A DNA stretch of 64,000 bases, from the IMG/VR virus record IMGVR_UViG_3300014969_000016, positions 51,715 through 115,714 of that record; one strand, given 5' to 3'. Made by a program: the position numbers and the translations under genes. The stretch is from a virus (taxonomy: Duplodnaviria > Caudoviricetes). Below, piece by piece: positions 6,039 to 22,963 of the stretch. Numbering within the stretch: position 1 is the stretch's first letter; every line of letters starts with the position of its first letter. The notes below the pieces were generated by a model, which was given only the letters and a program-made list of their open reading frames with translations, did not search any database and was not told the origin of the DNA.

Positions 6039-7754
6039 TCAGGGCCGATACTGAGCCTGGGCCGATGGGTACCAGGCCTGCAGCAGGCTCTCAGTCAGCG
6101 TGTCCTCATCGATGGTCACCGGCCGACCGGCGTTCACCGCATCGCATATGGCGCTCTTCTCCTGCAGCACACCGAACAGGTGGCCGTCGATGGTCGGGGT
6201 GCCATCCTCCTGGCAGGCCTGGAGGATGTGCCAGGTGATGGCCTCGCCATCGATGGCCCGCTGCATGCTGATGCTGTCGGTGCGCAGGATGCGGTCCATG
6301 GCCTGTTTGAAGTCTCCCGCCGACCAGGGAAGCTGGGCGAACACCGCATCAGCCGCAGCCGTGAGGGTGACCCCGACCCCGGCCGCACCGATCTGTGCCA
6401 GGCAGACCATCGTGTCGCTGTCCTGGTTCTGGAAGTCATTGATGGTCGTCATGCGACGGTCGCCCGTGACCTTGCCATTGATGGTGCAGTAGCGGATGCC
6501 CTTGCTACCCAGGGCCACGCCGATGGTTTCCCAGGCTCGCGTGTGGTGGTAGAACACAACGACCTTGCGGCCCTGATCGACCAGTTGCTGCACGTAGTCC
6601 ACGGTGGCGTGCGCCTTGGCGTTGCCCGCCTCCTGCCACAGTGCGAACATGCGCTGGGCCGCTTCCATCTTCGCCTTTGCGAAGTAGGCCTTCGGACCCT
6701 CATTGCGCATGACGGTGCCCAGGAAGTCATTGGCCAGTTCGTTGTACCGGCGCAGCATGCCATTCAGGGCGATGGGGACGACGACGATACCGCTGTTCGG
6801 CAGCAGGTCGCCCAGGTCGCTCTTCTCCCGGCGCACGTACACCGTGCTGCGCAGGTTGGAGTGAAGCTCGGCCGCACGTGTGAAGTCAGTACCGAACACG
6901 GTGAACTTGCGGCCCTTGGCCCACTTCTCCACGGGGGCGCAGTAGCGCCAGAGGAATCCGGATCCCTTGTGCGCACCAGGTGTGAGGGCCAGCAGCAGGT
7001 TCTCGCCACCCAGGTAGCTCAGTGGCACCATCGATTCGACCACGCGGTTGGTGAGCAACGTGCCAGTCATACCGACCAGGGGCGTGCCCTGGGCGCGCAG
7101 CGCCTCACCCAGCGCCATCATGACCTTGGCCCGACCGGTGGTCGCCTTGCCATTGCTGCCCTTGTCACGGTGGATCTCGTCACGCACCACAATCTTGGCG
7201 GCGCGGATGAAAGCGTTCGCCTCCAGCCGAGTCTTCTCATGGCCATCGCGGTCGGTGTAGGTCACGGTGCGCGTGGTCCACGCCTGCATGGTCTGAGAGT
7301 GGTCGCTGATCCAGTACACGTCAGCGATGGGGAGGCTCGCGAAGTCAGCCTTGATGCCCTTGATGTGGTGAAAGCGCAGGCCGGGGAAGGCGGCTTTCAT
7401 GTCACCCATGTATCCGGCCTGGGTGACGGGCGGGGCGAAGACCACGCCGTAGCCACCGTTGGCGATGCGCTCAGCGATCAGGGCCAGGGCGACGCGAGTC
7501 TTGCCCATGCCCATGTCATCACCGATGACGGCGCAGCCGAACGATGCGAGGGCGTGATTGGCCGCGACGCGTGCAGCGGTCTGATGCGGCAACTCAGGTG
7601 CGAGCAGTCCGGGGGGCGGCGGGGCGATGGCAGTCAGGGCGCTGGACAGATCGAACATGACCGGATCCAGGCCGGTGGCCAGGGCCGCTGGCGTCGGTGC
7701 GACCACGGGAACGGCTTGCGCCGCCTGCGTGATCGATGAGGGAAACAGTGACAT
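6039..7754 (-). CDS. SNF2/HARP-like helicase
   Basis: GDDMGMGKT, VRDEIH, MTGT...NR, GVGVTLTAA, QAMDRILR; start MSLFPSS after GGAG. Confidence 0.85.
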   Translation of the reverse strand: MSLFPSSITQAAQAVPVVAPTPAALATGLDPVMFDLSSALTAIAPPPPGLLAPELPHQTAARVAANHALASFGCAVIGDDMGMGKTRVALALIAERIANGGYGVVFAPPVTQAGYMGDMKAAFPGLRFHHIKGIKADFASLPIADVYWISDHSQTMQAWTTRTVTYTDRDGHEKTRLEANAFIRAAKIVVRDEIHRDKGSNGKATTGRAKVMMALGEALRAQGTPLVGMTGTLLTNRVVESMVPLSYLGGENLLLALTPGAHKGSGFLWRYCAPVEKWAKGRKFTVFGTDFTRAAELHSNLRSTVYVRREKSDLGDLLPNSGIVVVPIALNGMLRRYNELANDFLGTVMRNEGPKAYFAKAKMEAAQRMFALWQEAGNAKAHATVDYVQQLVDQGRKVVVFYHHTRAWETIGVALGSKGIRYCTINGKVTGDRRMTTINDFQNQDSDTMVCLAQIGAAGVGVTLTAAADAVFAQLPWSAGDFKQAMDRILRTDSISMQRAIDGEAITWHILQACQEDGTPTIDGHLFGVLQEKSAICDAVNAGRPVTIDEDTLTESLLQAWYPSAQAQYRP

Positions 7755-7790
7755 GGTGATAGCTCCGGGATACGGGAAGTGGGAAAGGTC

Positions 7791-7838
7791 AGTGTACAGC
7801 CTGCACCCTGGTATCACAACGTGCTGTGATACCAGGGT
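7791..7838 (-). promoter_or_regulatory. cassette repeat 1: TTGTGA-N17-TACACT with 14-bp hairpin
   Basis: ACCCTGGTATCACA-N6-TGTGATACCAGGGT. Confidence 0.8.
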
Positions 7839-7859
7839 ACCAGGGTACGAGCGGCAGGC

Positions 7860-8729
7860 TCAGCCCCAGGGCAGGCCGTTCTTCTTGGCGCACACCGGCC
7901 CGTAGCCCACGGCCACCGAACGGTTGTCGCCCTCATCGGTCAACTCCAGGTTGCAGAAGCAGCAGTGGTGCGTGGCCCAGCCCAGGCCAGCAGCCTCAGC
8001 GGCCGTGGCGGGGCGCCCGTTGCGCACCATGGCCATGCCACCCTTGACGTAGTCCCAGGACAGCTTCTCACCGGCAACCGGCGCAGCGATCAGGCGCATG
8101 GCGTACTGGTTGCCCGACGTGCGGCCCGTGCGGATCAGCCAGAAGGATGACCAGTCGCCCTCAGGGCCGACCACGTACAGCCCGTTGGCCAGGGGCGTGC
8201 GAGGCGCACCCTTGGCAGCGACCATGCGGCCTGCAGCCTCACGCTGGCGCTCGGTGAGCGTGCGACCAGCATCAGCCTGGCCCACCAGGCTCGCAGCGAA
8301 CTCACGGTTGCGAGGCGACGCAGCCGCATCGTCAGCGATGGCTCGCAGCGCTTCGACCAGGTCGTCCTTCGGCGTGACAGCCTTGGCGATCAGGTTGCGG
8401 GCGGCGAACAGGTTGATCAGCATGGCGTAGGCGACGTTCTCGTCGGCCGTGCCAGCGATGACCTGGCCCAGGACGCTCATGTCCACGGTGGCCAGGGGAT
8501 CGGATGCGAACGTGTGACCAGCGGCCAGCGCATCGATGCTGCGCACCGTGCCAGCGACCTGGGCGGCGATGGTGGGGGCGCACGTGGGGCAGATCGCGAT
8601 CCACTTGCCAGAGGCATTGACGGCGGCGTAGCCGTGGCCCACTCGCGTGGCGTCCTTGCAGAAGAGGCACTGGCCATCGCGCTTGGTGGCGATGACTCGG
8701 CTGAATCGGGCGAGGCCTGGAGTGTTCAT
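7860..8729 (-). CDS. DUF6011-like Zn-finger protein
   Basis: C-terminal HCCFCNLELTD...SVAVGYGPVCAKK; N-terminal CxxC...CxxC. Confidence 0.7.
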   Translation of the reverse strand: MNTPGLARFSRVIATKRDGQCLFCKDATRVGHGYAAVNASGKWIAICPTCAPTIAAQVAGTVRSIDALAAGHTFASDPLATVDMSVLGQVIAGTADENVAYAMLINLFAARNLIAKAVTPKDDLVEALRAIADDAAASPRNREFAASLVGQADAGRTLTERQREAAGRMVAAKGAPRTPLANGLYVVGPEGDWSSFWLIRTGRTSGNQYAMRLIAAPVAGEKLSWDYVKGGMAMVRNGRPATAAEAAGLGWATHHCCFCNLELTDEGDNRSVAVGYGPVCAKKNGLPWG

Positions 8730-8780
8730 GGGAGTGATCCGATCTCCGCACGGTGGCGGGGTGAAGTGGTGACAGGGATC

Positions 8781-8840
8781 ATGATAGGGCGCATACCCTG
8801 GTATCACAACACGGCGTTGCTAGAAACTCGGGAATCTTTC
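8781..8840 (-). promoter_or_regulatory. cassette repeat 2: TTGTGA-N17-TATCAT
   Basis: CCGTGTTGTGATACCAGGGT core; GTTGCTAG at 8816; upstream AAAGATTC. Confidence 0.75.
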
Positions 8841-8938
8841 AGGGCATCCCTGACGACATAACGCGGAGCAGCCCTGATCCCGTCCCACCCGGATGCGGTA
8901 GCTCGGTGGCCTCGCGGCCCCGCTCGGAGTGGGCGCCC

Positions 8939-9211
8939 TCAGCAGGCGTCGTAGACCACGCCCGTGCCGTTGCACTCGGAGCAGATGTCCACCTCAGCGA
9001 GCATCGCCTTGGCGACGGGGCTGGCCAGGCCAGAGCCTGAGGTGAGCGCCCAGCAGGCGGTGCTCACGGCATCGGAGAATCGGCTGCCGGTGCAGTTCAT
9101 GATGTAGTGCGCCTCTTGCGAAACGACGGGGCGCAACTCATCGGCAAGACCGGAGTTCACGAAGATCAACTCGGCCCTGGGGTTGCCCAGCGTGGTGGTG
9201 GTGGTGGTCAT
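8939..9211 (-). CDS. hypothetical cassette gene, leaderless, C-terminal CxxCxGxG
   Basis: ATG 6 nt after TACACT; MTTTTTTLG...CSECNGTG. Confidence 0.65.
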   Translation of the reverse strand: MTTTTTTLGNPRAELIFVNSGLADELRPVVSQEAHYIMNCTGSRFSDAVSTACWALTSGSGLASPVAKAMLAEVDICSECNGTGVVYDAC

Positions 9212-9217
9212 GGGATC

Positions 9218-9278
9218 AGTGTACAGGCGATACGTGGGTATCACAACACACTGTTGTGATACCCACGCAGATTTCTCA
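9218..9278 (-). promoter_or_regulatory. cassette repeat 3: TGA-GAAATC, 16-bp hairpin, TTGTGA-N17-TACACT
   Basis: CGTGGGTATCACAACA-N3-TGTTGTGATACCCACG. Confidence 0.85.
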
Positions 9279-9617
9279 GACCTGCGTGCAGCCCTCCGCA
9301 GCCGCAGCCGCAGCGATCTCGTCACGCAGGCGGCGCATGCGCACCGCACGGGCGTCCTGCTCGGCGCGAGCGATGGGCGTGTTGCGGAACGCAGCCAGCA
9401 GGCCGTCGTTGCCACGGTTGTGGGCCATGATGATGACAGTCTTGTTGGGACCAGTCGTGACATTGATGCTGGCGAACCCGCTGCACAGGTTGCCGGTGGC
9501 GCTGTTCACAGCATCCACGGTGCGGGCGATGGTGTAGCCCAGCGCGAGCATGTCACCGATCTCGGTGGCTGCCCACGTCTCGGTGGCGTAGTCGGTGGTG
9601 AGGGTGAGGGTGTACAT
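9276..9617 (-). CDS. hypothetical cassette gene
   Basis: Start MYTLTL after AGGA; stop lies inside repeat 3. Confidence 0.65.
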   Translation of the reverse strand: MYTLTLTTDYATETWAATEIGDMLALGYTIARTVDAVNSATGNLCSGFASINVTTGPNKTVIIMAHNRGNDGLLAAFRNTPIARAEQDARAVRMRRLRDEIAAAAAAEGCTQV

Positions 9618-9641
9618 GGTGGTGAGTCCTGTCGGTCGGTG

Positions 9642-9702
9642 GTGATACCAGTGTATCGGGCGCACCGTGTTGTCACAACACGGTGCGCCTGATTTCTGAT
9701 CA
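9642..9702 (-). promoter_or_regulatory. cassette repeat 4: 15-bp hairpin, TTGTGA-N17-TACACT
   Basis: GGCGCACCGTGTTGT-C-ACAACACGGTGCGCC; upstream AGAAATC. Confidence 0.85.
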
Positions 9703-9996
9703 GACCAGCGTGGCGCCCTTGCGGGCGGCGAACCGGCCGAACGCTGCGAGCATGCCCTCGCGGCCGATGTCCTTCGACATGCGGGCGACAGCCTTGTACG
9801 TGCTGCGCTTACGGTCGTACGAGCCGCCCGGATGGTTCGGGAACGATGATGCTGCCAGGACGGTGCCGTCGCTGCGCAGCACGTAGAACGTGCGGACGAT
9901 GCCGCCGACGCCCTGCAGGCCGTCGTTGTCCTCGGCCGTGTAGTCGCTGGTTGCCTCGGCAAGCTTGACTGCGCCGCGGGCTGAAATCTTGGCCAT
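9700..9996 (-). CDS. hypothetical cassette gene
   Basis: SD GAAGGAG; bounded by repeats 4 and 5. Confidence 0.7.
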   Translation of the reverse strand: MAKISARGAVKLAEATSDYTAEDNDGLQGVGGIVRTFYVLRSDGTVLAASSFPNHPGGSYDRKRSTYKAVARMSKDIGREGMLAAFGRFAARKGATLV

Positions 9997-10020
9997 GGTG
10001 GTGGCTCCTTCGGTAGGTGG

Positions 10021-10077
10021 TGTGATACCAGTGTACAGGCATACACTGGTATCACAACACGGTGAGCAGGATTTCTT
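10021..10077 (-). promoter_or_regulatory. cassette repeat 5: TTGTGA-N16-TACACT, 15-bp hairpin
   Basis: TGTGATACCAGTGTA-N6-TACACTGGTATCACA; upstream AGAAATC. Confidence 0.85.
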
Positions 10078-10087
10078 GGTGTCTCGT

Positions 10088-10342
10088 TCAGATGCTCCCG
10101 TCCATGTCGATACGGGCGACGATGGCGTCGGCCCGTGCGTACAGGGCGTCCACGTCGTCTTCGTCCAGGTACAGGCCAGCCTGCTCGGCAGCGTCGCTCA
10201 GCAGGGCGTACACAGCCTCCTGCATGGGCACCCACTCGTTGGCGCTGGCATCGCCAACGCTCAGGCCGTCCTCCAGGAAGGCGGCGCGGATCTGCTCGTT
10301 CGTGATCCGGATGCGGTTGATGGCGTCGTTGCCCACGTTCAT
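10088..10342 (-). CDS. acidic hypothetical cassette gene
   Basis: ORF coupled (ATGA) to 10339..10506. Confidence 0.65.
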   Translation of the reverse strand: MNVGNDAINRIRITNEQIRAAFLEDGLSVGDASANEWVPMQEAVYALLSDAAEQAGLYLDEDDVDALYARADAIVARIDMDGSI

Positions 10343-10506
10343 GACGTGACCTCGACGGTCCAGCCGTCACGGGCGACCATCTCGTCGTAGTTGCGGAGGA
10401 TGTACATGGTGGCCCATGCGATGAGCGCCTTGTCGGTGCGCTCCACGGTGGAGTCCATCTCCAGCGGCTCGGAAAGCTGCGGGTGGCTCAGGCGGTAGGT
10501 GATCAT
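10339..10506 (-). CDS. 55-aa hypothetical cassette gene (not in ORF track)
   Basis: MITYRLSHPQ...VEVTS; SD GGGAG. Confidence 0.6.
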   Translation of the reverse strand: MITYRLSHPQLSEPLEMDSTVERTDKALIAWATMYILRNYDEMVARDGWTVEVTS

Positions 10507-10600
10507 GGTGGTTCTCCCGGTAAGTGGTGGGTGGTGGGTGGCTCCCCGCCCGCAGGCGGGGAGCCGGTGCCCGAGTCTCAGGTCGGTGCCGCCTCTGTCG

Positions 10601-10660
10601 TGTGATACCAGTGTATCGAGCGCAGCGTGGTATCACAACACGCTGCGCCCGAATCTTTCA
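10601..10660 (-). promoter_or_regulatory. cassette repeat 6: TTGTGA-N17-TACACT with hairpin
   Basis: GCGCAGCGTG-N9-CACGCTGCGC; begins TGA-AAGATTC. Confidence 0.85.
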
Positions 10661-10873
10661 GGCGGTCACCCAGGGGGCGACGGCCCACACCAGGTCGGTG
10701 GTGCGCATGAACAGCCCGTTGGGGTACAGGTCGGTCAGCACGGTGACGGTGCCAGGCGTGTCGTGGAATTCGAAGCCGGTCACCACGTGGGGGATGTCGC
10801 TGGAATCAACGAACTCCTGGCCCACGCACAGGTGCGCAACCTCGCGGCGGATGTAAGTGGCTTGTGCGGTCAT
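10658..10873 (-). CDS. hypothetical cassette gene, leaderless
   Basis: ATG 6 nt after TACACT; MTAQATY. Confidence 0.65.
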   Translation of the reverse strand: MTAQATYIRREVAHLCVGQEFVDSSDIPHVVTGFEFHDTPGTVTVLTDLYPNGLFMRTTDLVWAVAPWVTA

Positions 10874-10879
10874 GGTGTC

Positions 10880-10927
10880 AGTGTACAGGGTGGCGAGTGT
10901 TGTCACAACACGGTGACCAGGATTTCT
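10880..10927 (-). promoter_or_regulatory. cassette repeat 7: TTGTGA-N17-TACACT
   Basis: GTGTTGT-C-ACAACAC palindrome; upstream AGAAATC. Confidence 0.85.
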
Positions 10928-10965
10928 CCCGGCCACCGTGTGTCGTGCTCCCTACCACCAGGAGA

Positions 10966-11181
10966 TCAGCCAGCGGTGAACACAGGCCTGCTGGTGCGCA
11001 GTGAGGCCTGGAAGAGCAGGTCGTAGATGGCCGTGCGGGCGGCGAACGCCGACGCACCGCTGCGGCGCAGGTTGCGGTAGTGGAACCGCAGGTACCAGGC
11101 CGTGTAGTTGTCCACGGTGATGGTGTTGGGCGCGTAGTCAGCGTTGCGCCGGAACTTGATGATTTCGCGGGTGATGGTCAT
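10966..11181 (-). CDS. basic hypothetical cassette gene
   Basis: SD AGGAG; MTITREII. Confidence 0.65.
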   Translation of the reverse strand: MTITREIIKFRRNADYAPNTITVDNYTAWYLRFHYRNLRRSGASAFAARTAIYDLLFQASLRTSRPVFTAG

Positions 11182-11215
11182 GGTTGGCTCCTGGCCGGTA
11201 AGTGGTGGTGGTGTC

Positions 11216-11265
11216 AGTGTACAGGGTGCGCCGTGTTGTGACAACACGGCGCACCAGGTTTCTCA
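11216..11265 (-). promoter_or_regulatory. cassette repeat 8: TTGTCA-N17-TACACT, 15-bp hairpin
   Basis: GGTGCGCCGTGTTGT-G-ACAACACGGCGCACC; begins TGA-GAAACC. Confidence 0.85.
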
Positions 11266-11451
11266 GGCCGTGGCCTGCGCCCCATCGATGAGGAAGGCCG
11301 TCAGGTCTGCGACCTGCGAGGGATCCAGGTCAACGACCTGGCCATCGGTGGTGTAGACCCACACGTGGCCCTCATCGGTGAACACGGCGCGAAGACTGTC
11401 GCCCGTGCCATCGGTGGCATTGAAGTTGGATACGAGTGCGTTCTGGAACAT
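11263..11451 (-). CDS. hypothetical cassette gene
   Basis: SD GGAG; MFQNALV; stop inside repeat 8. Confidence 0.65.
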   Translation of the reverse strand: MFQNALVSNFNATDGTGDSLRAVFTDEGHVWVYTTDGQVVDLDPSQVADLTAFLIDGAQATA

Positions 11452-11470
11452 GGTGCTCTCCATTCGGTGG

Positions 11471-11529
11471 TGTGATACCAGGGTACAGGATGCACCCTGG
11501 TATCACAACACGGTCGGGCTGATTTCTCA
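11471..11529 (-). promoter_or_regulatory. cassette repeat 9: TTGTGA-N17-TACCCT, 14-bp hairpin
   Basis: TGTGATACCAGGGT-N9-ACCCTGGTATCACA; begins TGA-GAAATC. Confidence 0.85.
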
Positions 11530-11847
11530 GCGGGCGTTCACGGCGGCAACCGCCGCAGCGTGGCTGCCAGGGCACTCGCAACCGCCCATGGCGATCTGCA
11601 GGGCCGTGCAGGTGGGCAGGTGCCATTTGAACGACACCATCTGGCGGTCGATCTCCTGGGCGCCGTGCAGCAGGTTGGCTGCGAGCGTGCGAGCCTGCTC
11701 GGCGGTGAGGCGCAGGTCAGCCAGCACGCCGCCGTTGTCACGGTCGGTCACGCCGTCCTTCCACACCCGCACCATGACGGCGGGGCGCAGCTTGGCGTTC
11801 TGAACTTCGATCAGTTCGCCGTGGTCGGTGGCCTGGAGGGTTTGCAT
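11527..11847 (-). CDS. hypothetical cassette gene
   Basis: SD GGGAG; C-terminal H..C...CxC..H. Confidence 0.65.
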   Translation of the reverse strand: MQTLQATDHGELIEVQNAKLRPAVMVRVWKDGVTDRDNGGVLADLRLTAEQARTLAANLLHGAQEIDRQMVSFKWHLPTCTALQIAMGGCECPGSHAAAVAAVNAR

Positions 11848-11883
11848 GTCGGTATCTCCCTGGTTCGGTCGGTGGTGTACCCC

Positions 11884-11911
11884 AGGATACAGGAGTTGCT
11901 AGCAACCACAA
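11884..11911 (-). promoter_or_regulatory. cassette repeat 10: TTGTGG-N16-TATCCT with GTTGCTAGCAAC palindrome
   Basis: First promoter of the array in transcription order. Confidence 0.6.
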
Positions 11912-11938
11912 CCTCGATACCCAGGTTTATACCTGTTT

Positions 11939-11959
11939 TTATCCACAGAGTTGTCCACA
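11939..11959 (+). promoter_or_regulatory. two tandem DnaA boxes
   Basis: TTATCCACA-gag-TTGTCCACA in non-coding DNA. Confidence 0.65.
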
Positions 11960-12493
11960 GGCTGTGGGCGCAGCCCCGCCCCTGGGCAGGGGAGCGGAGC
12001 GCGACCGGCCACGGCAAGGGAGGCGGATCCCCACGCCGTGACCGGCTACCCCAGGGGCGGCGGAACATCCCCCAGGGCAGTCGCCCGTAGGCGACGTGGA
12101 TGAGTCTACACGCGTGGCGCCACCCGGCCCTGGGACACTGGATGCGATGCCCAGGGCCGGGTGACTCCCGCCCGTTGCCGGTGGGTGAGCGTAACACAAC
12201 AGCAACGTGGCGAGTCAAGGCGCGAGCGTGCGTACGCGTGTTCGCCACCCGTGTAGGGGTGGGTAGGCGAGAGCGCCAGCGCTCTTACCTGGGTATCAGC
12301 GTTAGCGGTTGGTCAGTTATCCATGCCCCTAAAGACATGGCCCATGCCTCGTACGTAGTACTGCATGGCGGGTGCATCACACCTGGTAGATGGGCACGTG
12401 TACGCATGTAGTACTGCGTATGAGTCATGAGCCTTGCCTTCTAGGGAGCTTCTAGGGACACGCTTGTCCCGAACTTGGCCCGAATGATTCGAC

Positions 12494-12751
12494 TCAGGGC
12501 GTGCGGATCTCGCCCGTCTCATCGTGTTCCAACCAGTATCCACAGGCGTCTGTTCCAAGGGTCCAGCCGCTGTCGCTGACCAGCACTGCATCCGGGCAGC
12601 CCTTGATCGTGGTGCCGTGGAGTGTTCCAAGGAAGACCATCCCATCGATGCCGTGGTCAGCAGTCTGCTTGGCAGCGGCCACCGTCATCTCTTCTTCCTT
12701 GATCACGTAGTCGAACAGGTCGCACTGCTGTTCCAAGCTAGGTGGTGTCAT
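12494..12751 (-). CDS. hypothetical protein
   Basis: Start MTPPSLE; packed minus-strand run. Confidence 0.5.
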   Translation of the reverse strand: MTPPSLEQQCDLFDYVIKEEEMTVAAAKQTADHGIDGMVFLGTLHGTTIKGCPDAVLVSDSGWTLGTDACGYWLEHDETGEIRTP

Positions 12752-13178
12752 AGTCCCACCCGTAGTGCTCGGGGTGCTCTTCCTTCCAAGCAGTGCGGTG
12801 AGCATGGCTGCGATGCGGTTCCAAGAGGCGTTCCAACCAGGGCACCTGGGCGCAGAGAGCATGGGCGCAATCGTGACAGATCACGCACTCGTAGTCAGCA
12901 GGGGGCTGCATCATGCGAGGCTCGTTGTACTCAGGCTCCCAGTTGCGGTTCTCAATGGGGGTGACACCGTTCGGTGATGTCCTGGTCTTGTACTCACCAT
13001 CCTCGCCACGCACCCAGCGATCCTCTGTGTTGTTGGGCAGCGTGGCCTGGAGGTTGTCCACGAACATGCCGTAGCCACCGTGGAAGCAGATCCACAGGCA
13101 GTTGTCGAAGGCGTACTCGGTATCAGGCATCGCCGTGTCAGGTGTAAGCGTGGTATCACACGCATAGCACTTAGTCAT
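12738..13178 (-). CDS. Cys/His-rich hypothetical protein
   Basis: MTKCYAC...GGYGMFVD...ICHDCAH. Confidence 0.6.
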   Translation of the reverse strand: MTKCYACDTTLTPDTAMPDTEYAFDNCLWICFHGGYGMFVDNLQATLPNNTEDRWVRGEDGEYKTRTSPNGVTPIENRNWEPEYNEPRMMQPPADYECVICHDCAHALCAQVPWLERLLEPHRSHAHRTAWKEEHPEHYGWDYDTT

Positions 13179-13503
13179 GGAAGCGTTCCAGCACCTTCTC
13201 GACCTCTTCGGGTGTGACTGTTCCAGTGACATCCTCATGGCTGTCAAGCTGCTTGGCCCACAACAGGGTGACTGCGATGGGGCACACCAGTTGCAGGCGC
13301 ACGGCGTCGCCATCTTCGAAGTGGTCGTACAGCGGCTCGGTCAGTTCCAGGTGGCTGTCGCTGTCCAGCAGCACGTCCAGGCAGTCTTCCCAATGGGCAC
13401 CACGCCAGTGTGGGTTGGCCGTGGTGAAGTGCTCCAGGGCCAACGCATTCTCGTTGGGCATGTTGTGGCGCACCCAGGCCAGGGCGTCGATGTATTGAGT
13501 CAC
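13171..13503 (-). CDS. hypothetical protein
   Basis: Coupled ORF. Confidence 0.55.
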   Translation of the reverse strand: MTQYIDALAWVRHNMPNENALALEHFTTANPHWRGAHWEDCLDVLLDSDSHLELTEPLYDHFEDGDAVRLQLVCPIAVTLLWAKQLDSHEDVTGTVTPEEVEKVLERFHD

Positions 13504-14020
13504 TTGAACATTCCCTTCACGAAGTCCATTGCGAAGTAGCCCACCAGGAAGCTGATGAAGCCACGCTTGATCTTGACGGTGGTTGGTTCCAGCGTGCCGT
13601 TCTGTCGTTCGATCTCACGCTGGATGTGGTTGCGTTGCTGCACCAGGTCGGCGTACTGACGGCGCTGGCGCTGTGTGTCCTCGGTGCGGCTCATCGCTTC
13701 ACCCAGCGTTCCCAGCGCTCTTGGAGGAAGTTCAGGATCATGAGTATCACAGTTCCACCACCACTTCGTTACCGACGTATGCCGCGCCGTGGTAGCAGTC
13801 CTCATCGCCGCACCACGGGCCGTTCAGGTGGGTCACCTTGTCCTCGGCACCCTTGCGGGTGTGGTGCAGGCTCACCAGTTCAGGCTCCCACACGTTCTGC
13901 CACACAGGATGCACCACACGGGGCTGCACCTGGGCCAGACGCTCTTGCAGGTCACTCATCGCTTCACCACCGACACGAATGCCACGATGACGATGCCCAT
14001 GCAGATGAGTCCCAGCGCCA

Positions 14021-14389
14021 TCACCGATCACCCCTGATGTCTTCCTCGTTGGGCACGTACTCGTCCAGGTACAGGATGCCGCCCTGGGTGAACACTTGGT
14101 AGTCGATGCTGCCCAGGTAGGTGGAGTCGTCATCCTCGGCCTGCAGACGGTCGAAGCGTGCGCAAATGGCACCCTCCAGCGTCTGCCACGCCGTGTAGAT
14201 GGCGTGGTCGGGGTGGTCAGGCTCGCTGGCCTCCACCGGCACCACAGCGCGCATCGGCGGCGCTGGGCGCACGCCCAGGATGGTGTTGACGAAGTTGAGG
14301 CTCGGCCCGTTCTGCGAAGTGCAGAAGTCCTCCCACGCCTCTTGCTCGTCCTCTCTCGGATCGGTGGGCGGCTCGTCGTTGCGGTACAT
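14021..14389 (-). CDS. hypothetical protein
   Basis: SD GAAGGA; has its own promoter at 14424. Confidence 0.6.
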   Translation of the reverse strand: MYRNDEPPTDPREDEQEAWEDFCTSQNGPSLNFVNTILGVRPAPPMRAVVPVEASEPDHPDHAIYTAWQTLEGAICARFDRLQAEDDDSTYLGSIDYQVFTQGGILYLDEYVPNEEDIRGDR

Positions 14390-14423
14390 GTTGTGTCCTT
14401 CGTATCGGGTAAGTGGTGTGGTC

Positions 14424-14456
14424 AGTATACAAGCGTTACCGTGGTATCACAACACG
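14424..14456 (-). promoter_or_regulatory. promoter TTGTGA-N17-TATACT
   Basis: CGTGTTGTGATACC core, as in the cassette repeats. Confidence 0.8.
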
Positions 14457-14635
14457 TCGTTGCCATCACTTGACCTCAAAGTCGTCGTAGCCGATGCCGA
14501 CCAGGGTCCGGTACCGATACCGGCCGGGAAGCTCGTCCACGAACTTCTTGCGGTCGTAGATCGACACGAAGAACATGCAGACCAGTTCCTTGGGGTCACG
14601 GCTGGCAACGCCGTGGAGCATGTAGACCTTCTTGG

Positions 14636-14854
14636 TCATGACGCCACCACCCGGAAGGTCGGATCGAAGTGCTCACCGAAGCTGAGGTTGCCATCGACAT
14701 CCTCAATCTCGTACGGCTCACCGTTGATGACGATGATCGCCTCGGTGCCATCGGGCAGGATAAGGATGCGCGCCCAGCCCTCGGTGGGGAGCGCTTCGTT
14801 GCTGCGGATCTTGTAGCTCCCGCGGTGTGTGGTCAGTGCGTAGGTGGTGCTCAT
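14636..14854 (-). CDS. hypothetical protein
   Basis: ATGA-coupled ORF. Confidence 0.55.
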   Translation of the reverse strand: MSTTYALTTHRGSYKIRSNEALPTEGWARILILPDGTEAIIVINGEPYEIEDVDGNLSFGEHFDPTFRVVAS

Positions 14855-15114
14855 GCCGGTCCCGCCTGCATCTCGGAGCGCTCACGCATCAGCACTTCGA
14901 TGGGCTGATCGTTGTCCAGGCTGTCGAACTGCTCTCGCACTTCGATCAGGTCGCTCTCGTCCAGGTCGTAGAGGGCGGCGTAGAACTCCGGCTCATACTT
15001 CCACGGCTTCTCGACGGCGTAGGCCACGTCCTTGGCCTCGTAGTTGTTGTCAGCCAGCCAGGCGGTGAGTCGGACCATGTTGTCGTGGTCGTCCCACCAG
15101 TAGTCATTGCTCAT
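14851..15114 (-). CDS. acidic hypothetical protein
   Basis: SD AAGGA; AVEKPWKYEPEF. Confidence 0.6.
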   Translation of the reverse strand: MSNDYWWDDHDNMVRLTAWLADNNYEAKDVAYAVEKPWKYEPEFYAALYDLDESDLIEVREQFDSLDNDQPIEVLMRERSEMQAGPA

Positions 15115-15152
15115 GTTGGTGTTGTCCTTGTCTTGGTAGGTGTTGTGTTATC

Positions 15153-15181
15153 AGTGTATCGGATGAGTGTTGTGTTACCAA
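15153..15181 (-). promoter_or_regulatory. promoter TTGGTA-N17-TACACT
   Basis: Intergenic; flanked by ACACAACAC half-sites. Confidence 0.65.
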
Positions 15182-15550
15182 CGTCAGTTGGAGTAATCCC
15201 TGTCCTTGCCATCGAAGCCATCTTCGAAGCCACGCTTGAACTCAGCGAACGCTTCCTTGCCCTCTCGGGCCACGTCAGCGAACGTGAAGCGTGGGTCGAA
15301 GTCGTCGTGCTCGCGACGGTACTGACCAGTGAAGTAGCCGTCCTCGTAGTGCGTCATCGTGGTACCTCGTACGTCCTGACGTACTCATGCAGGTGGCCGT
15401 CCTTTTCGAAGATGCCTTCGATGGTGACTTCGATCCCTCCGGTGGCCTGGCCTTCGAACTCCACGGTGACGTTGAAGATGTCAGCGTGCTGCTGGCACTC
15501 GTCCACGAAGTTGGCCACGGTGAGCATGGTGTCTCGATCTAGTCCGTACA

Positions 15551-15910
15551 TCACTCGACCTCCTGATAGGTGCGACGGTGGACGATGCTGTTGATGACCG
15601 GCTGGGCCAGCCCGCCATACATCTCGCCAAGCTCGCGCTGGCTGTACTTGCCGCTGGCGTACTTCGTGCGGATCTCACGCACCTGCTTGTCGGTGAGTGA
15701 GCGCTGGCGTGTGTTGGGCGTGCCCTTGGCTGGGCCACGCTGGGCCATGCCGTTGACGTGCTTGGCAGGCCTGAGCGTGTCCAGGGTGGCCCTGGCGCTG
15801 TCCAGGATCTCCTGGCGTTCACGCTGCTTCAACACGATCTGCTCTTGCAGCACTTCGATCTGATTGTCGATCCTGGCCACTCGTTTGAGCAGCGTCTCCA
15901 TGTCGCTCAT
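15551..15910 (-). CDS. coiled-coil plus HTH DNA-binding protein
   Basis: LTDKQVREIR...YSQRELGEMYG...INSIVHRRTY. Confidence 0.65.
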   Translation of the reverse strand: MSDMETLLKRVARIDNQIEVLQEQIVLKQRERQEILDSARATLDTLRPAKHVNGMAQRGPAKGTPNTRQRSLTDKQVREIRTKYASGKYSQRELGEMYGGLAQPVINSIVHRRTYQEVE

Positions 15911-16719
15911 GACGCAACCTCTCCCTGCTGGGCCGAGAGCGATGCGAGCAGCGACGCCATCAGGTCAGCGGACGGGTCGATGTTGTGCTCGACCGGAGCA
16001 GGAGCCTCCACGCCTTGAGCCTTCTGATCGACGTAGGCCTGCGCCACGGGCGCATTGGTGTCCACCAGGGTGGGCGCATCGATGCCGATGGCGTCCACCA
16101 GCATGTTGGCGACGTTGCGCTCCGCATCGAAGATGGCCACGCTGGCCGGTGCCGTCGTGGGCTGGCGCACTGCGTCGGCCGTGTAGACCAGGAACAGGTT
16201 GCCATCAGCGTCCAGCAGGGCGTAGCGGGCCGGTCCACGCATGGCGACCTTGACCAGTGCGTACAGCTTGCGCTCACGCATGACGGTGGTGAGCAGGACG
16301 AACGCCTTCTCCACGGCGCCGTTGATCTTGCCCTTCTCGCGCTTGGGGCGCACCTGCTTGACGCCTTCGACCAGGTACTTGCCGAAGTCCTTGGCCTTGA
16401 CGAAGCAGACGATCTCAGCCAGCCCACGTGGTGACGTGCAGGCGGCGATCTCGTCGTCGGTGAAGGTGACCCAGGCGCCGTTGCTGGCCTGAGCCATGCG
16501 GGTCACGTCGGTGGGGTGGACAACCTCGCCCGTGTCCTTGCGGATGACGGCGCGGCCCAGCGGGATGTTGGCGTCCCCCCGGTAGAACTCGGAGCGGGCG
16601 ACCCTCGTCTCTTCGGTCCCCGTGAAGACGGAGAGCGGCATGACGAGCATCGGGCCGAAGCTCAGTGTGATAGTGGTGGTGGCCCTGACGGGCGCCCCAG
16701 CCAGAGCGGTGGGTGACAT
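15907..16719 (-). CDS. ku: Ku-like DNA end-binding protein
   Basis: TITLSFG...PLSVFTGTEE, TGEVV, WVTFTDDEIAA, EIVCFV, KAFVLL...M, ADAVR follow the prokaryotic Ku pattern. Confidence 0.8.
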   Translation of the reverse strand: MSPTALAGAPVRATTTITLSFGPMLVMPLSVFTGTEETRVARSEFYRGDANIPLGRAVIRKDTGEVVHPTDVTRMAQASNGAWVTFTDDEIAACTSPRGLAEIVCFVKAKDFGKYLVEGVKQVRPKREKGKINGAVEKAFVLLTTVMRERKLYALVKVAMRGPARYALLDADGNLFLVYTADAVRQPTTAPASVAIFDAERNVANMLVDAIGIDAPTLVDTNAPVAQAYVDQKAQGVEAPAPVEHNIDPSADLMASLLASLSAQQGEVAS

Positions 16720-16763
16720 TGGTGTGTCCTTTCGGGACGATTCCGGTGAGTGGTACGTGTATC

Positions 16764-16792
16764 AGTGTACATGGTGTTGCTATCAACACCAA
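16764..16792 (-). promoter_or_regulatory. promoter TTGGTG-N17-TACACT for ku
   Basis: Contains TGGTGTTG-N4-CAACACCA palindrome. Confidence 0.65.
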
Positions 16793-16793
16793 C

Positions 16794-16832
16794 CTCCCAG
16801 CACAGGTATTGTTGAGATACCTGTGCTGGGAG
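16794..16832 (-). terminator. 16-bp hairpin after AAA gene
   Basis: CTCCCAGCACAGGTAT-N7-ATACCTGTGCTGGGAG. Confidence 0.7.
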
Positions 16833-16839
16833 AGAGCTA

Positions 16840-18126
16840 TCAGGGCGCCGACACCAGCGCCTCAGCCTCACGCTGGCGCTGCTCTTCGGTGAGCATCACG
16901 AAGATGCTGCGAGCCTCCAGGATCTCTTCGACCACCGGGATCTCGTTGGCCTTGAACATACCGGTGAAGATCTGCACGCCCAGGGCGATGCCCATCTCCA
17001 GGATGTCCTGCTCCAGGTTGGCCAGGGCCGTGGTGCCGACCGGCGTGCGAAGCTGGTTGCTCTGACGGGCCAGGCGCAGGTAGTCGCCCAGCAGGCGCAC
17101 GGCCTGGCTGTCGATCAGCTTGGCTTCGATGACCTTGTCGTAGTCCCAGCGGATGTGACGGAACCGGTTGATGAACGCCTCGTTCATCTCACCCATGCCC
17201 TTGTATCCCTCGTTGTACGTGCCGATGATCCACAGGTCGTAGCTGGCGTTCACCGTCTCGGGCATCAGCATGCCGCTGGTGCCATCGAAGGTGGTCTTCC
17301 ACACGGCCTTGTTGCGGTTGGTGAACTCATGGCGGTGGTCAGCCAGCGGGTGGAGCGACGACGTGACTCGCGCATCGAATGCGTTGATCTCGTCCAGGTA
17401 GAGGATGCCACCGGCCAGCGCCGCCAACTCGACCAAGCCGGGGAGCCAGTGAAGCTCACCCATGTAGCTGGTCATCTGACCGAACAGGTCGAAGTCAGTG
17501 ATGCCGCTGGATCCCGAGAGTGTGAACACGGGCATTGGCTTGGGCAGCCCCAGCATCTCGGACCACTCCACGGCCAGAACCTCAACGAGCATCGTCTTGC
17601 CCGACTGCGTCTCACCCTTCAACATGATGTTGGCGGGGCGCTCCTGGTTCTTCTTGCGGTACGCCTTGGTGGTGAAGCGCAGCAGCATCTCCACGTCGGT
17701 GGAGCCATCAGCCATGATGCGGTTGATGTACGCCTTGACCTTGGCCTTGCTCGGGCGCAGGTGATCCAGGCGCTCGTCCATCGGGTCGGTGATCGGCTGG
17801 ATCATGTGGCTGAGCAGAAGGCCGCTGGCCTGTTGCTGAGTCATCGGCGCCACGCTCGGCTCGTACTCCGGGGCAGCAGCCACCGTGGGAACGGTAACGA
17901 CCTGGGCCGGTGCGGTGGCGAAGCCTTCGGGCGTGTCGCTGAGCAGCCGGGGCAGCATGAAGATCTCTTCGCCGTGCGGGCCAGCGACCTTGATCTTGCG
18001 CTGGTTCACGGGATCGTCTTCGGCCCGGATGATGGTGTTGTCAACGATGGTGACAACCTCGTCTTCGTAGAGGCCTTTGAGCACCCGGTACTTGAAGCCT
18101 GGGATGAGTGAGGCTGCGAGAGCCAT
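16840..18126 (-). CDS. MoxR/CbbQ-like AAA+ ATPase
   Basis: GETQSGKT, LYLDEIN, TYNEGYKG, NEAFINRF. Confidence 0.85.
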   Translation of the reverse strand: MALAASLIPGFKYRVLKGLYEDEVVTIVDNTIIRAEDDPVNQRKIKVAGPHGEEIFMLPRLLSDTPEGFATAPAQVVTVPTVAAAPEYEPSVAPMTQQQASGLLLSHMIQPITDPMDERLDHLRPSKAKVKAYINRIMADGSTDVEMLLRFTTKAYRKKNQERPANIMLKGETQSGKTMLVEVLAVEWSEMLGLPKPMPVFTLSGSSGITDFDLFGQMTSYMGELHWLPGLVELAALAGGILYLDEINAFDARVTSSLHPLADHRHEFTNRNKAVWKTTFDGTSGMLMPETVNASYDLWIIGTYNEGYKGMGEMNEAFINRFRHIRWDYDKVIEAKLIDSQAVRLLGDYLRLARQSNQLRTPVGTTALANLEQDILEMGIALGVQIFTGMFKANEIPVVEEILEARSIFVMLTEEQRQREAEALVSAP

Positions 18127-18165
18127 GGTGGTGATCCTTTCAGATCGGGGTAAGTGGTGCGGCAA

Positions 18166-18216
18166 ACGATACAGCGGTTACAGCGGTAACACAACACGCT
18201 CGGCCAAGATTTCTCA
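18166..18216 (-). promoter_or_regulatory. promoter TTGTGT-N17-TATCGT for AAA gene
   Basis: Upstream TGAGAAATC, as in the cassette repeats. Confidence 0.75.
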
Positions 18217-18436
18217 GCGACCTGGGCAAACGCCGTTATCGATTGCGACTTCGAAACTGGCGATTTCTGGCCCTCTACCTGGTGTGATGATGCCTGTTGT
18301 GACAACACACGATGCCCCAGGATCGACGCAAACGCGTTTTGGGCAGTGTGGGTGCGGAACAGGGGTATCGGCCCTCACAGGGCCACACAGAGGCCTCTGG
18401 CGGGTTGCTAGCAGGTCACCCACTATCTCAACAGCC

Positions 18437-18468
18437 GTGTTGTGTTACGGGTGGGCATCCTGTATCGT
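18437..18468 (+). promoter_or_regulatory. promoter TTGTGT-N17-TATCGT for vWA gene
   Basis: ATG 18476 lies 7 nt downstream (leaderless). Confidence 0.75.
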
Positions 18469-18475
18469 GTCCTCC

Positions 18476-20623
18476 ATGACCGCACGTACCCGCAAGCCTC
18501 GCAAGAAGGCGACCACCGACATCGGCCGGTCGATCCTGCAGCGTGAGCGTCAGCGGCTGGCCAAAGAGCAAGCTGATCTTGCCGAGAAGCTGGCTGAGGA
18601 TGCCGCCCGCAGTCGTCGCGCCAACAGGACGAAGAAGAACAACCCGATCACCACGGCCGACAACGCCATGCAGCGCTCCATCGTGCGCCGTGTCGCTGGT
18701 GCCCTGGCGTCTGAGGGTGTGAACGTGCCCATCGAAGCGCACGTGATCCCCAACGAGCAGGGTGTCACGGCCTGGACTGACTTCGACCGGATCTACGCCG
18801 GGTATCACCTTCACGATGACGTGCGGATCACCGCCGCCGTGCTGCGTGGCGAGTTGTACCACGAAGGTGGCCACTGCCGCTTCACCGACCCGTTCGTTGA
18901 CCTGGAGGTTGACGCCAAGAACGAGTGCGGATTCGAAGGCACCGTGGACGAGTTCCGCGTGGCCCTGGGTGGCCGTGACATGACACGGGGCGAGATGCAC
19001 CGTGCGTGGAACGCCCTGGAGGATCAGCGGATGGAGACGGCCGTGGTGAGCGACAGCCCACGCAAGGCCGGATACCTCACTCCCATGATGCTGAGCGAGT
19101 TGGCCTACAGCCCCGAGATGGCGTGCGCCAACTGGCCGCTGATGGTGTGGCGCAAGTACCTGCCCCGCAAGATCCGCGACGGTGCGAAGGCGCTGTTCAT
19201 GGCTGAGCACGGGCCGGATGTCGTGCGCCAGATCCAGATCGTCGTGACCCGCTACGTGCTGGCCACCACGGCCACCGACATGTACATGGCCACCGTGGAG
19301 ATGGCTGAGATCTTCAAGACCATCCAGACGGCCTTCGACATCGATGACAAGGGTGCGGGCCATGATCGCCAGCGCTCCCGCCGTGGCACGCCTGGCAACA
19401 GTGAGCGCGAGATCCCCGTGTCCTCCGACATGATCGAAGAGAACGACGACGAGATCGAATCGATCCCCCAGCCCGGAGCGGGCAAGCCTTCCAAGGCTCC
19501 CAAGCAGGATGCTCCGAAGGCAGACGACGCCCAGGGCGCCGGTACCGATGCCACCGATGAGGAAGATGCCGAAGAGGGCGATGCTTCCAAGGGTGAGCAG
19601 GAGTCGGACGATGCTGGCGATGCCTCGCCTCAGGAAGAGGGCGGCGACAGCGGCACGCACGAAGACGACGGTGCCGATGTCAAGGAGCCGGAAGCTTCCA
19701 AGGATGAGTCGGACGACGACAGCGATGGCGTTGGCGACGACGAGGATGACGAGGAAGACGACGACGAGGATGACGACGACGGCCTGACCCAGGAAGATCT
19801 GGACGAGGCGCTGGCAGAGGCTGAGGAAGAGCGTCTGAACGATCCGACTCTCGACCAGGACGCGCAAGCGTTCCATGACGCCAAGAACGACACGGCCACG
19901 GCATTGAAGCCATACGTCGGCGGCATCTGCTCCAACCCGTTGGAAGTGGCAGAGGCCAACAACCTGGCTGATCAGATGCAGCGTGCTTTCGAGACGGCCA
20001 CGGCCGAACTGCAGCCGATGTGGAAGGAGCAGCAGCGCCGGGGCATCCTCAACGTGCTGCGCTACGAGACGCGCCAGGCTGGCGATGTCGAGTTCTTCCG
20101 CAACTACGTGGACAACGGCAACCCTGGCTGCGACATCGCCGTCAGCGTCCTGCTGGACTACAGCGGTTCCATGGGCAGCGTGGAGGCTGAACTGGCCAAG
20201 GTCGCCTTCGCCTGCAAGCGGGCGGGCGATCTGCTGGGGATCCCGGTCACGGTGACCCTGTGGGATACCGACGCCCGTGTGTTGTGGGACGCCAGCGAGC
20301 GTGCCGAGCACCTGCCGGTCATCGATGCCCAGGGTGGCACCAACCCGCAGGTCGCTCTCAACGACCTGGACAACCAGCGGTTCGGCAAGGCCAAGCACGT
20401 GGTGCTGATCATGACGGACGACGCCTGGAACAACGGAGCGCCCACCCTGGCCAGCTACAAGTCTGAGGGTCGCCTGATCATCGGGCTGGGCTACACAGAC
20501 GGCACCTACAGCCCGTACATCCAGGAGTCGATGGAGAAGAAGGGCGCCGACTTCGCCTACAGCATCAAGGATCTCGCAGAGATCCCCCGGCACCTGGAGC
20601 AGGCGCTCATCACCGTCGCCTGA
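18476..20623 (+). CDS. metallopeptidase-like + acidic linker + vWA domain protein (CobT-like architecture)
   Basis: YHEGGH, WNALEDQRME, D/E-rich linker, LLDYSGSM, GGT, MTD. Confidence 0.85.
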   Translation: MTARTRKPRKKATTDIGRSILQRERQRLAKEQADLAEKLAEDAARSRRANRTKKNNPITTADNAMQRSIVRRVAGALASEGVNVPIEAHVIPNEQGVTAWTDFDRIYAGYHLHDDVRITAAVLRGELYHEGGHCRFTDPFVDLEVDAKNECGFEGTVDEFRVALGGRDMTRGEMHRAWNALEDQRMETAVVSDSPRKAGYLTPMMLSELAYSPEMACANWPLMVWRKYLPRKIRDGAKALFMAEHGPDVVRQIQIVVTRYVLATTATDMYMATVEMAEIFKTIQTAFDIDDKGAGHDRQRSRRGTPGNSEREIPVSSDMIEENDDEIESIPQPGAGKPSKAPKQDAPKADDAQGAGTDATDEEDAEEGDASKGEQESDDAGDASPQEEGGDSGTHEDDGADVKEPEASKDESDDDSDGVGDDEDDEEDDDEDDDDGLTQEDLDEALAEAEEERLNDPTLDQDAQAFHDAKNDTATALKPYVGGICSNPLEVAEANNLADQMQRAFETATAELQPMWKEQQRRGILNVLRYETRQAGDVEFFRNYVDNGNPGCDIAVSVLLDYSGSMGSVEAELAKVAFACKRAGDLLGIPVTVTLWDTDARVLWDASERAEHLPVIDAQGGTNPQVALNDLDNQRFGKAKHVVLIMTDDAWNNGAPTLASYKSEGRLIIGLGYTDGTYSPYIQESMEKKGADFAYSIKDLAEIPRHLEQALITVA

Positions 20624-20646
20624 TACCCAGGTATCACAATCACCCA

Positions 20647-20679
20647 GGAGCCTCACCGTTAACTAGACGGTGAGGCTCC
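20647..20679 (+). terminator. 13-bp hairpin after vWA gene
   Basis: GGAGCCTCACCGT-N7-ACGGTGAGGCTCC. Confidence 0.65.
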
Positions 20680-20705
20680 GACCTTCCAAGCCACACTGAG
20701 GAACC

Positions 20706-20909
20706 ATGACCACGCCCATCAAGCTGAGCGACCCGACCAAGGCACGCCGCAACGGCATCCTGTCGTGCGACGAGTGCGGGCGAGAGATCTCCGTACTGGC
20801 CCACCAAGATCCGGAGTTGGGCGATGGCTGGCCACTGCATCGTTGCCCTGCCACCAACGGAGAGCCGCGAGCATTCGACCGGTTCGATGTTGTGATACCA
20901 CTGCGGTAG
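20706..20909 (+). CDS. small Zn-ribbon protein
   Basis: SD GAGGA; CDECG...HRCP. Confidence 0.55.
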   Translation: MTTPIKLSDPTKARRNGILSCDECGREISVLAHQDPELGDGWPLHRCPATNGEPRAFDRFDVVIPLR

Positions 20910-20918
20910 CTGTACACT
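20888..20918 (+). promoter_or_regulatory. promoter TTGTGA-N17-TACACT
   Basis: ATG 20925 lies 6 nt downstream. Confidence 0.8.
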
Positions 20919-20924
20919 GGTGTT

Positions 20925-21814: not shown

Positions 21815-21846
21815 GTGTTGTGTTAACAGCGCACGCAGGGTACAAT
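21815..21846 (+). promoter_or_regulatory. promoter TTGTGT-N17-TACAAT
   Basis: ATG 21853 lies 6 nt downstream. Confidence 0.75.
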
Positions 21847-21852
21847 GAACGC

Positions 21853-22419: not shown

Positions 22420-22459
22420 TACCAGTACACTGATACGTCCAAGAAAGGACACCTAACCC

Positions 22460-22948: not shown

Positions 22949-22963
22949 GCCGCCATTGCGGAG

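Follow-up and report, generated by a model that had tools for sequence, protein, structure and literature searches.

The window analysed here is a stretch of 64,000 nucleotides (nt), bases 51715-115714 of the single 115,714-bp virus record IMGVR_UViG_3300014969_000016 (Caudoviricetes), which has a G+C content of 62.6%, is rated 98% complete and linear, and carries nearly all of its genes on the minus strand. On that strand, between positions 7791 and 11911 of the window, lies an array of small orphan open reading frames (ORFs), parted one or two at a time by ten related intergenic elements, each of which typically fuses a promoter-like unit with a stop codon and a hairpin. This arrangement had been noticed in a first-pass annotation of the sequence, and reading of positions 12300-7500, with extraction of every intergenic stretch, recovered all ten elements, whose -35 boxes start at 11911, 11508, 11244, 10908, 10638, 10057, 9678, 9246, 8809 and 7819.

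A common plan is followed by nine of the ten elements: a GAAATC-like patch, 12 nt, CGTG, a -35 box TTGTGA, then TACC or CAAC, a spacer of 16-17 nt and a -10 box TACACT (TACCCT and TATCAT in one copy each), often followed by GGTATCACA. The consensus given in the first-pass annotation stands for these nine, with the qualification that element 8 (8781-8809) has the weak -10 box TATCAT; it fails for the first element (11884-11911), which represents a variant class with TTGTGG, a 16-nt spacer containing GCTAGCA, and TATCCT. The composite pattern TTGTSA-N16-18-TAYACT is matched nine times in the 64-kb window where 0.02 matches are expected (none of 100 shuffles reached nine); seven of the matches lie inside the array and the other two at 14424-14452 on the minus strand and 20890-20918 on the plus strand. 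Since copies of the same promoter type also precede the AAA-ATPase (18166-18194) and Ku (16764-16792) genes, the repeat family reaches beyond 7791-11911. Five TGA stop codons, at 9276, 9700, 10658, 11263 and 11527, are fused to the GAAATC-like patch or lie at most 3 nt from it, as first described, which puts five of nine stops in an A/T patch of 5-6 nt at a fixed 12 nt ahead of the -35. The two genes reported as leaderless, starting at 10873 and 9211, do have their ATG 6 nt past TACACT. Furthermore, the ten gene models of the array, from gene 1 to the backbone gene (lengths in Table 1), agree with those called independently on public contigs. A C/A-rich leader motif, CCACTTACC, recurs 10-25 nt past most promoter copies (e.g. 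at ~11185-11200 and 14400-14415) and is also present in the related locus L116.

The products of the array offer few clues to function. Pfam and PHROG scans of the array proteins returned sub-threshold matches only, except for DUF6011; the small proteins neighbouring the array gave nothing in such scans, and no helix-turn-helix protein was found among those scanned. The description of these genes as early effectors is therefore a conjecture of the first-pass annotation, as no significant family match was obtained for nine of the ten products, and in the tenth there is only DUF6011, a domain of unknown function.

Table 1. Features of the array, further copies of its repeat, and repeat regions of other lineages (positions in the window or, in the last five rows, in the named locus; dG, free energy of folding in kcal/mol; aa, amino acids)
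Feature	Position	Strand	Remarks
Element 0, promoter of the variant class ahead of gene 1	11884-11911	-	no significant hairpin (z +0.5)
Gene 1, 106 aa	11527-11847	-	orphan
Element 1	11465-11529	-	TGA fused to GAAATC; -35 at 11503-11508; -10 TACCCT
Element 1 hairpin, 17 bp		-	from -35 to past the start site; dG -34, z -6.9
Gene 2, 62 aa	11263-11451	-	orphan
Element 2	11205-11265	-	TGA fused to GAAACC; -10 TACACT
Element 2 hairpin, 14 bp		-	centre at the -35 (TTGTCA); dG -27.9, z -4.5
Gene 3, 71 aa	10966-11181	-	homologues in L116 (62-65% aa identity) and L121 (40%)
Element 3	10874-10943	-	upstream hairpin with GAAA loop, then promoter; z -2.1 (z -3.1 in the 34-element set)
Gene 4, 71 aa	10658-10873	-	leaderless; weak homologues in L116 and L121, order relative to gene 3 differs
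Element 4	10598-10660	-	TGA fused to AAGATTC; second arm GGTATCACA after the -10
Element 4 hairpin, 12-13 bp		-	-35 in loop; dG -27.5, z -3.9
Gene 5 leader insert, 63-nt G+C-rich hairpin	10538-10600	-	in the window and L125; absent from the close relative L113
Gene 5, 55 aa	10339-10506	-	kept across the phage group, position varies by lineage
Gene 6, 84 aa	10088-10342	-	orphan; ATGA overlap with gene 5
Element 5	10018-10080	-	GAAATC patch and promoter; 16-bp hairpin, -35 side pairs with -10 side; dG -25.4, z -5.2
Gene 7, 98 aa	9700-9996	-	orphan
Element 6	9636-9702	-	TGA 3 nt ahead of GAAATC; 14-bp hairpin centred on the -35; dG -34, z -6.4
Gene 8, 113 aa	9276-9617	-	orphan
Element 7	9212-9278	-	TGA fused to GAAATC; 18-bp hairpin, 3' arm is the -35 segment; dG -29.8, z -5.1
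Gene 9, 90 aa	8939-9211	-	orphan, leaderless; poly-Thr N-terminus, CxxC pairs
Element 8	8775-8845	-	AAGATTC patch, weak -10 TATCAT; no significant hairpin (z -0.7)
Backbone gene, 289 aa	7860-8729	-	conserved; DUF6011 C-terminus
Element 9	7785-7850	-	15-bp hairpin with the -35 segment as 3' arm, then promoter; dG -36.4, z -5.4
Helicase, 571 aa	6039-7754	-	conserved backbone; predicted target of element 9
Further promoter copy	14424-14452	-	no hairpin
Hairpin (17 bp) and promoter between AAA-ATPase and Ku genes	16764-16833	-	TTGGTG, 17 nt, TACACT; in L133 gene 5 occupies this site, between two repeats
Promoter copy ahead of AAA-ATPase gene	18166-18194	-	preceded by TGAGAAATC
Sole plus-strand copy	20890-20918	+	ATG of gene 20925-21389 6 nt past the -10; z -2.2
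Lineage-specific repeat region, L001	6689-8179
Lineage-specific repeat region, L134	6236-8290
Lineage-specific repeat region, L138	5047-10121
Lineage-specific repeat region, L006	3497-9920
Lineage-specific repeat region, L133	5400-9290

Most of the elements form stable hairpins. Seven of the ten in the array fold at -25 to -36 kcal/mol, a stability reached by none of 200 dinucleotide shuffles, the hairpin of element 3 is moderate, and elements 0 and 8 have no significant one. The hairpins of these seven always take in the -35 segment, and this is achieved by four constructions: the partner of the -35 side is found past the -10 in elements 1 and 5 and upstream in elements 7 and 9, elements 2 and 6 contain a palindrome centred on the -35, and in element 4 a G+C-rich stem has the -35 in its loop. 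Across the whole family (34 elements from the window and seven relatives) z falls below -3 in 19 of the 34, against 4 of 150 random windows. Moreover, at least three extra pairs extend the stem beyond the conserved 9-mer arms in 9 of 14 arm pairs, where 0.019 would be expected per pair (P ~6e-13), and these extra pairs fall at positions whose sequence varies from copy to copy while complementarity is kept. Because the pairing runs past the 9-mer into variable positions, the pattern favours selection for the stem, or a mechanism that makes palindromes, over a protein site alone. An extra pair of 9-mer arms, GGTATCACA ... GTGATACC, 24 nt apart, occurs at about base 10,790 of genome C1, outside the window, in the structural-gene half of the genome and far from the array.

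A number of other explanations for the motifs were tried and set aside. A site of CRP type (TGTGA-N6-TCACA) was rejected, as the arms are in reverse order or too distant, and so was a single-strand promoter of the F-plasmid type, as the stems rebuild no -35/-10 pair with normal spacing. Reverse-facing promoters within the palindromes are not a general feature, only element 5 yielding one, and a GNRA-type GAAA tetraloop would suit the GAAATC patch of elements 1 and 3, as well as that of a few copies from relatives, but not the rest. Searches of IMG/VR with an exact 14-mer of the core gave 94 single, unrelated matches, which were attributed to chance.

The composite pattern, searched across IMG/VR and metagenomes with low-GC chance matches discarded, yielded relatives of the phage, which were further gathered via the helicase, Ku and gene 5. 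Relatives have in common the AAA-ATPase, Ku, the DUF6011 protein and the helicase, at 32-67% identity, and seven of them (L003, L116, L121, L110, L111, L106 and L109, core proteins 50-67% identical) carry the same promoter core: TTGTGA and TACC followed by TGTACACT recur before homologous and non-homologous genes, and the 6-nt leaderless spacing is retained. The interval from Ku to the DUF6011 gene, by contrast with its flanks, holds 21 genes of which few are common to relatives. In 17 relative loci no homologue turned up for six of the nine array genes (1, 2, 6, 7, 8 and 9). Those genes that are shared stand in differing order: the window has 3-4-5-6, L116 has 3-5-element-4, and in L121 gene 4 comes ahead of gene 3; several upstream genes are also permuted in L134. 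The array is the hyperplastic part of an early region whose flanks are conserved across an uncultured family of soil phages and whose interior is replaced and reordered, so that the comparison of relatives proposed as a check in the first-pass annotation did bring out differences in gene content and order. A 130-aa gene at 61875-62267, some 50 kb from the array, has a 60%-identical homologue within the equivalent variable region of L116. An apparent pair of close relatives with gene replacements, L134 and L135, was discarded, as their DNA is 100% identical and the differences came from gene callers.

The same region in other lineages contains repeats of other kinds. L001, L006, L133, L134, L136 and L138 each have their own family of repeated, palindrome-containing intergenic elements, and the variant class to which element 0 belongs is the sole repeat type in L133. 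Repeats which are uniform within a genome and different between lineages fit two readings: the copies may be homogenised, or they may have evolved jointly with a factor specific to the lineage.

On the population scale the array is stable, since near-identical contigs are collinear. Contigs 99.5-100% identical to the window are present in several public metagenome samples, and eight such contigs show no gain or loss of a cassette; they differ by slippage of 7 nt and 3 nt, by a cluster of changes in the helicase gene and by isolated single-base changes. The run of threonine codons in gene 9 (9199-9211) has one extra ACC in L125 and L140, attributable to slippage, and L125 has a 7-nt repeat-slippage insertion adjoining the gene 5 leader hairpin.

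Gene 5 is the one small gene that is widely shared. Its homologues form 23 clusters at 60-100% identity, the longest contig that carries one measuring 138 kb, and it is better conserved across the phage group than the core genes, although it occupies at least four different genomic positions across related contigs. An AlphaFold2 (AF2) model has a beta-beta-alpha-beta topology (pLDDT 96), for which no PDB fold match was found at E<=0.001 and no informative Atlas neighbour. In L133 the gene lies between the AAA-ATPase and Ku genes with two copies of that locus's own putative promoter repeat around it, at a site which has a single element in the window, L121, L001, L003 and L116. It is flanked by the resident repeat type in L134, has a resident copy upstream in L138, and adjoins no repeat in L136. 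Gene 5 does not carry its boundary element, because the adjoining repeat, where present, is always of the resident type. Moreover, when the window is compared with L116, the homology of gene 5 runs from one boundary of the gene to the other and no further, and on one side in each genome gene 5 directly abuts another gene, no element intervening.

In our reading the array is probably a set of insulated transcription units of one or two genes, similar to the promoter-early stem-loop (PeSL) cassettes of T4-like phages and dependent on host RNA polymerase. The repeats would be the phage's own set of promoters for that polymerase, of the sigma-A / sigma-70 type and most likely early; recognition by the principal sigma factor of the host is suggested by the -35/spacer/-10 geometry, the 6-nt leaderless distance, the retention of the core in relatives and a genome in which no phage sigma factor was found. 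Each promoter, joined to a stem-loop and set close against the preceding gene's stop codon, would have one or two small genes under its control, and two of the genes would be transcribed as leaderless mRNAs. The conserved -35 segment would serve as one arm of the stem-loop, paired with a custom complement upstream or downstream; in elements 1 and 5 this partner arm lies past the start site, so that the full hairpin would form only in transcripts arriving from upstream. Such a hairpin may attenuate, terminate or process read-through and thereby make each gene an insulated unit, while the A/T-containing GAAAT patch, at its fixed distance from the -35, would most simply be a contact resembling an UP element.

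Several observations weigh against this reading. The hairpin is absent from elements 0 and 8 and from the extra copy at 14452. No U-tract or T-run follows the hairpin on the sense strand at any element, so that the combination of G+C-rich hairpin and U-tract which defines an intrinsic (Rho-independent) terminator does not occur and classical intrinsic termination is doubtful; a terminator scan reported element 6 solely in the reverse orientation, in which the GAAATC patch resembles a short T-run. As a -35 box TTGTGA falls short of the best consensus, and contacts of RNA polymerase do not account for the TACC conserved behind it. Quite different repeat families occupy the same places in other lineages, which would be unexpected if a shared host polymerase alone recognised them.

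The first-pass annotation had gone further and proposed recombination between the repeats as the mechanism of gene turnover: exchange of the RecA type would excise, insert and reorder promoter-plus-gene cassettes in a plug-and-play manner. The phage does encode RecA, as had been stated, and the differing orders of genes 3, 4 and 5 (3-4-5 in the window, 3-5-4 in L116, 4 before 3 in L121) and the insertion in L133, with gene 5 between two resident repeats where others have one, in the topology of the PeSL model, would all be expected of such exchange. Element 4, moreover, appears chimeric, its 5' part being that of element 8 in the window and that of element 2 in L113, which hints at exchange between repeat copies. 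However, the only breakpoint resolvable in a close relative falls inside gene 4: L113, whose contig is also that of L127, matches the window at 100% identity between 12110 and ~10762 and at ~91% thereafter, with the switch ~100 nt ahead of element 4. The eight near-identical contigs are collinear, and no repeat-bounded indels were seen in close relatives. The repeat copies have at most 20 identical bases in common (median 12), which is short for RecA-dependent exchange, and the homology of gene 5 stops at the gene's own ends, with flanking repeats always of the resident lineage's type. Evidence for the repeats themselves as cross-over points is mixed, and we regard the proposed mechanism as rather doubtful. 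It is somewhat easier to imagine, though we stop short of calling it probable, that the repeats are only promoters and that turnover is ordinary mosaicism, produced by illegitimate recombination and selection at gene boundaries, in which they would have no causal role. Breakpoints at gene boundaries or within a gene and stability within the population agree with this, as does the operon-like stretch 12494-15910, which has a single promoter copy and is also patchy and reordered among relatives. Mosaicism does less well with the repeat copy on each side of the L133 insertion, with the chimeric element 4, and with the fact that the one-promoter-per-gene array is the part richest in lineage-specific genes, six of nine having no homologue in the set. 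An integron-like cassette array, with site-specific recombination at the hairpin sites, is effectively refuted: the resemblance is loose and confined to hairpins between single genes, the absence of an integrase noted earlier for the window extends to the whole 98%-complete genome, where no tyrosine or serine recombinase (PF00589, PF00239) was found, and a promoter-like copy accompanies every unit, unlike typical integron cassettes, which lack one.

A different kind of explanation concerns the conserved arms, TGTGATACC and its complement, which might be operator half-sites through which a lineage-specific phage DNA-binding protein switches the promoter set jointly, the hairpin potential then being a by-product of palindromic operators. 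An exact 9-mer, beyond mere complementarity, is kept in most copies and relatives, and a binding protein could account for the TACC after the -35. A co-evolving trans-acting factor would also be expected to leave different repeat families at the same positions in each lineage and to give mobile gene 5 a neighbouring repeat of the resident type. The uniformity of repeats within a genome and their difference between lineages keep this possibility alive as a partial rival, and it may coexist with the insulated promoter modules favoured above. On the other hand, the distance between arms ranges from 5 to 19 nt, their order flips and some copies lack one arm, so that there is no single dimer geometry and the fixed half-site spacing and orientation of a dimeric repressor operator are not seen. 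Elements 2, 3 and 6 swap TACC for another palindrome and their stems still form, the main stem of element 4 is an unrelated G+C-rich sequence, complementarity runs on into non-conserved flanks, and the scans of neighbouring genes brought up no helix-turn-helix protein. On balance, operators seem to us rather unlikely. More speculative still, and to be taken as improbable, is a reading in which this soil phage family carries integrase-free cassette arrays whose boundary module, a promoter with a hairpin built on its own -35, would be uniform within each genome and different between lineages because a lineage-specific phage factor recognises it and because small accessory genes, gene 5 among them, preferentially land at it and are excised from it; if true, it would couple regulation and gene mobility in one element.

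The phage belongs to an uncultured, high-GC group from soil which is unrelated to T4-like phages. A near-identity search (megablast) of a cultured-phage collection gave no match at the DNA level, and in protein-level searches the DNA polymerase, AAA-ATPase and helicase were no closer than 22-31% identical to phage proteins, the best matches of polymerase and ATPase being to Streptomyces, Gordonia and Brevibacterium phages. From these distant actinophage matches, the DUF6011 domain and the pairing of Ku with an AAA-ATPase as in Cluster O mycobacteriophages, and further from the leaderless starts and the G+C content, we infer a host among the Actinomycetota. The AAA_5 ATPase gene is followed by the Ku-domain gene at 15907-18126, and their pairing suggests that end-joining is used for genome circularisation. 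Directly upstream of the array, positions 11850-12494 form a 640-nt non-coding stretch with several strong G+C-rich hairpins, in which the only two DnaA-box matches of the window lie next to each other (11939-11947 and 11951-11959; TTATCCACA and TTGTCCACA). This stretch may be a replication origin or a regulatory region; the cumulative GC skew has no turning point near the array. L116 has TGTGGAC repeats ahead of one of its promoters. An Rfam scan of positions 7000-23000 of the window gave no match and a tRNA scan found none.

If unrelated high-GC soil phages have arrived at the solution of T4-like phages with no sequence in common, the module would be a case of convergent design, in which stop codon, promoter and stem-loop are united in one repeated unit beside orphan genes and serve the expression, and possibly the exchange, of accessory genes. 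The comparative set assembled here, with its conserved flanks, lineage-specific repeats and a movable gene 5, could help to tell exchange that is guided by such modules from exchange that they merely accompany. In addition, the array provides a list of compact and probably strong predicted promoters, several with putative insulating stem-loops, that could be tried in high-GC bacteria.

Among known systems, the attC cassettes of integrons also consist of single small genes parted by hairpin-forming repeats; the array differs in that it has no integrase, a predicted promoter in each unit and no common attachment site. Cluster O mycobacteriophages (the Corndog group) have repeated SigA-like promoters and a 17-bp palindrome (Cresawn et al. 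2015, PMC4351075). With these the window has in common several strongly predicted SigA-type promoters, some leaderless mRNAs, a repeated intergenic palindrome and a leftward early region encoding a Ku-like protein together with an AAA ATPase. The Cluster O palindrome, however, is an invariant 7-3-7 site that is found genome-wide and is not fused to promoters (PMC4351075), whereas the palindrome here belongs to the promoter and has a variable partner arm and variable flanks; the closest proteins, moreover, were those of the other phage genera named above and not of Cluster O.

The closest parallel is with PeSL cassettes, known from T4-like myoviruses (Arbiol et al. 2010, PMC2839356; Comeau et al. 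2014, PMC4122927) and, within the literature searched, appearing only in work on T4-like phages. Their parts are, in order, an upstream stop in an AT-rich region, a sigma-70 promoter, a stem-loop, a Shine-Dalgarno sequence and a start; the stem-loop can take any of five positions relative to the boxes, and the neighbours are ORFans in hyperplastic regions (PMC2839356, PMC4122927). The likeness which the first-pass annotation had pointed out is close, feature by feature: the upstream stop lies in an A/T-richer patch ahead of the -35, the predicted promoter has -35 and -10 boxes of the sigma-70 type, a stable stem-loop occupies alternative places (upstream, over the -35, between the boxes or over the -10), the modules stand directly ahead of orphan ORFs clustered in a hyperplastic region between core genes, and one ORF may lie between two modules where relatives have one, as in L133. 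There are differences as well. The stem here always has the conserved -35 segment as one arm and is not followed by a U-tract, some units are leaderless, and the conserved stretch is ~40-60 nt with at most 20 identical bases, as compared to ~100 nt in PeSLs. Mini-circles or repeat-bounded indels were not seen here in close relatives. Descent from the T4-like elements finds no support, as the near-identity search gave no cultured-phage DNA match and the core proteins are only distantly actinophage-like. The array is an analogue and not a homologous member of the PeSL group, because no sequence homology links the two, and it is read as a set of PeSL-like insulated units because the published parts and their order match.

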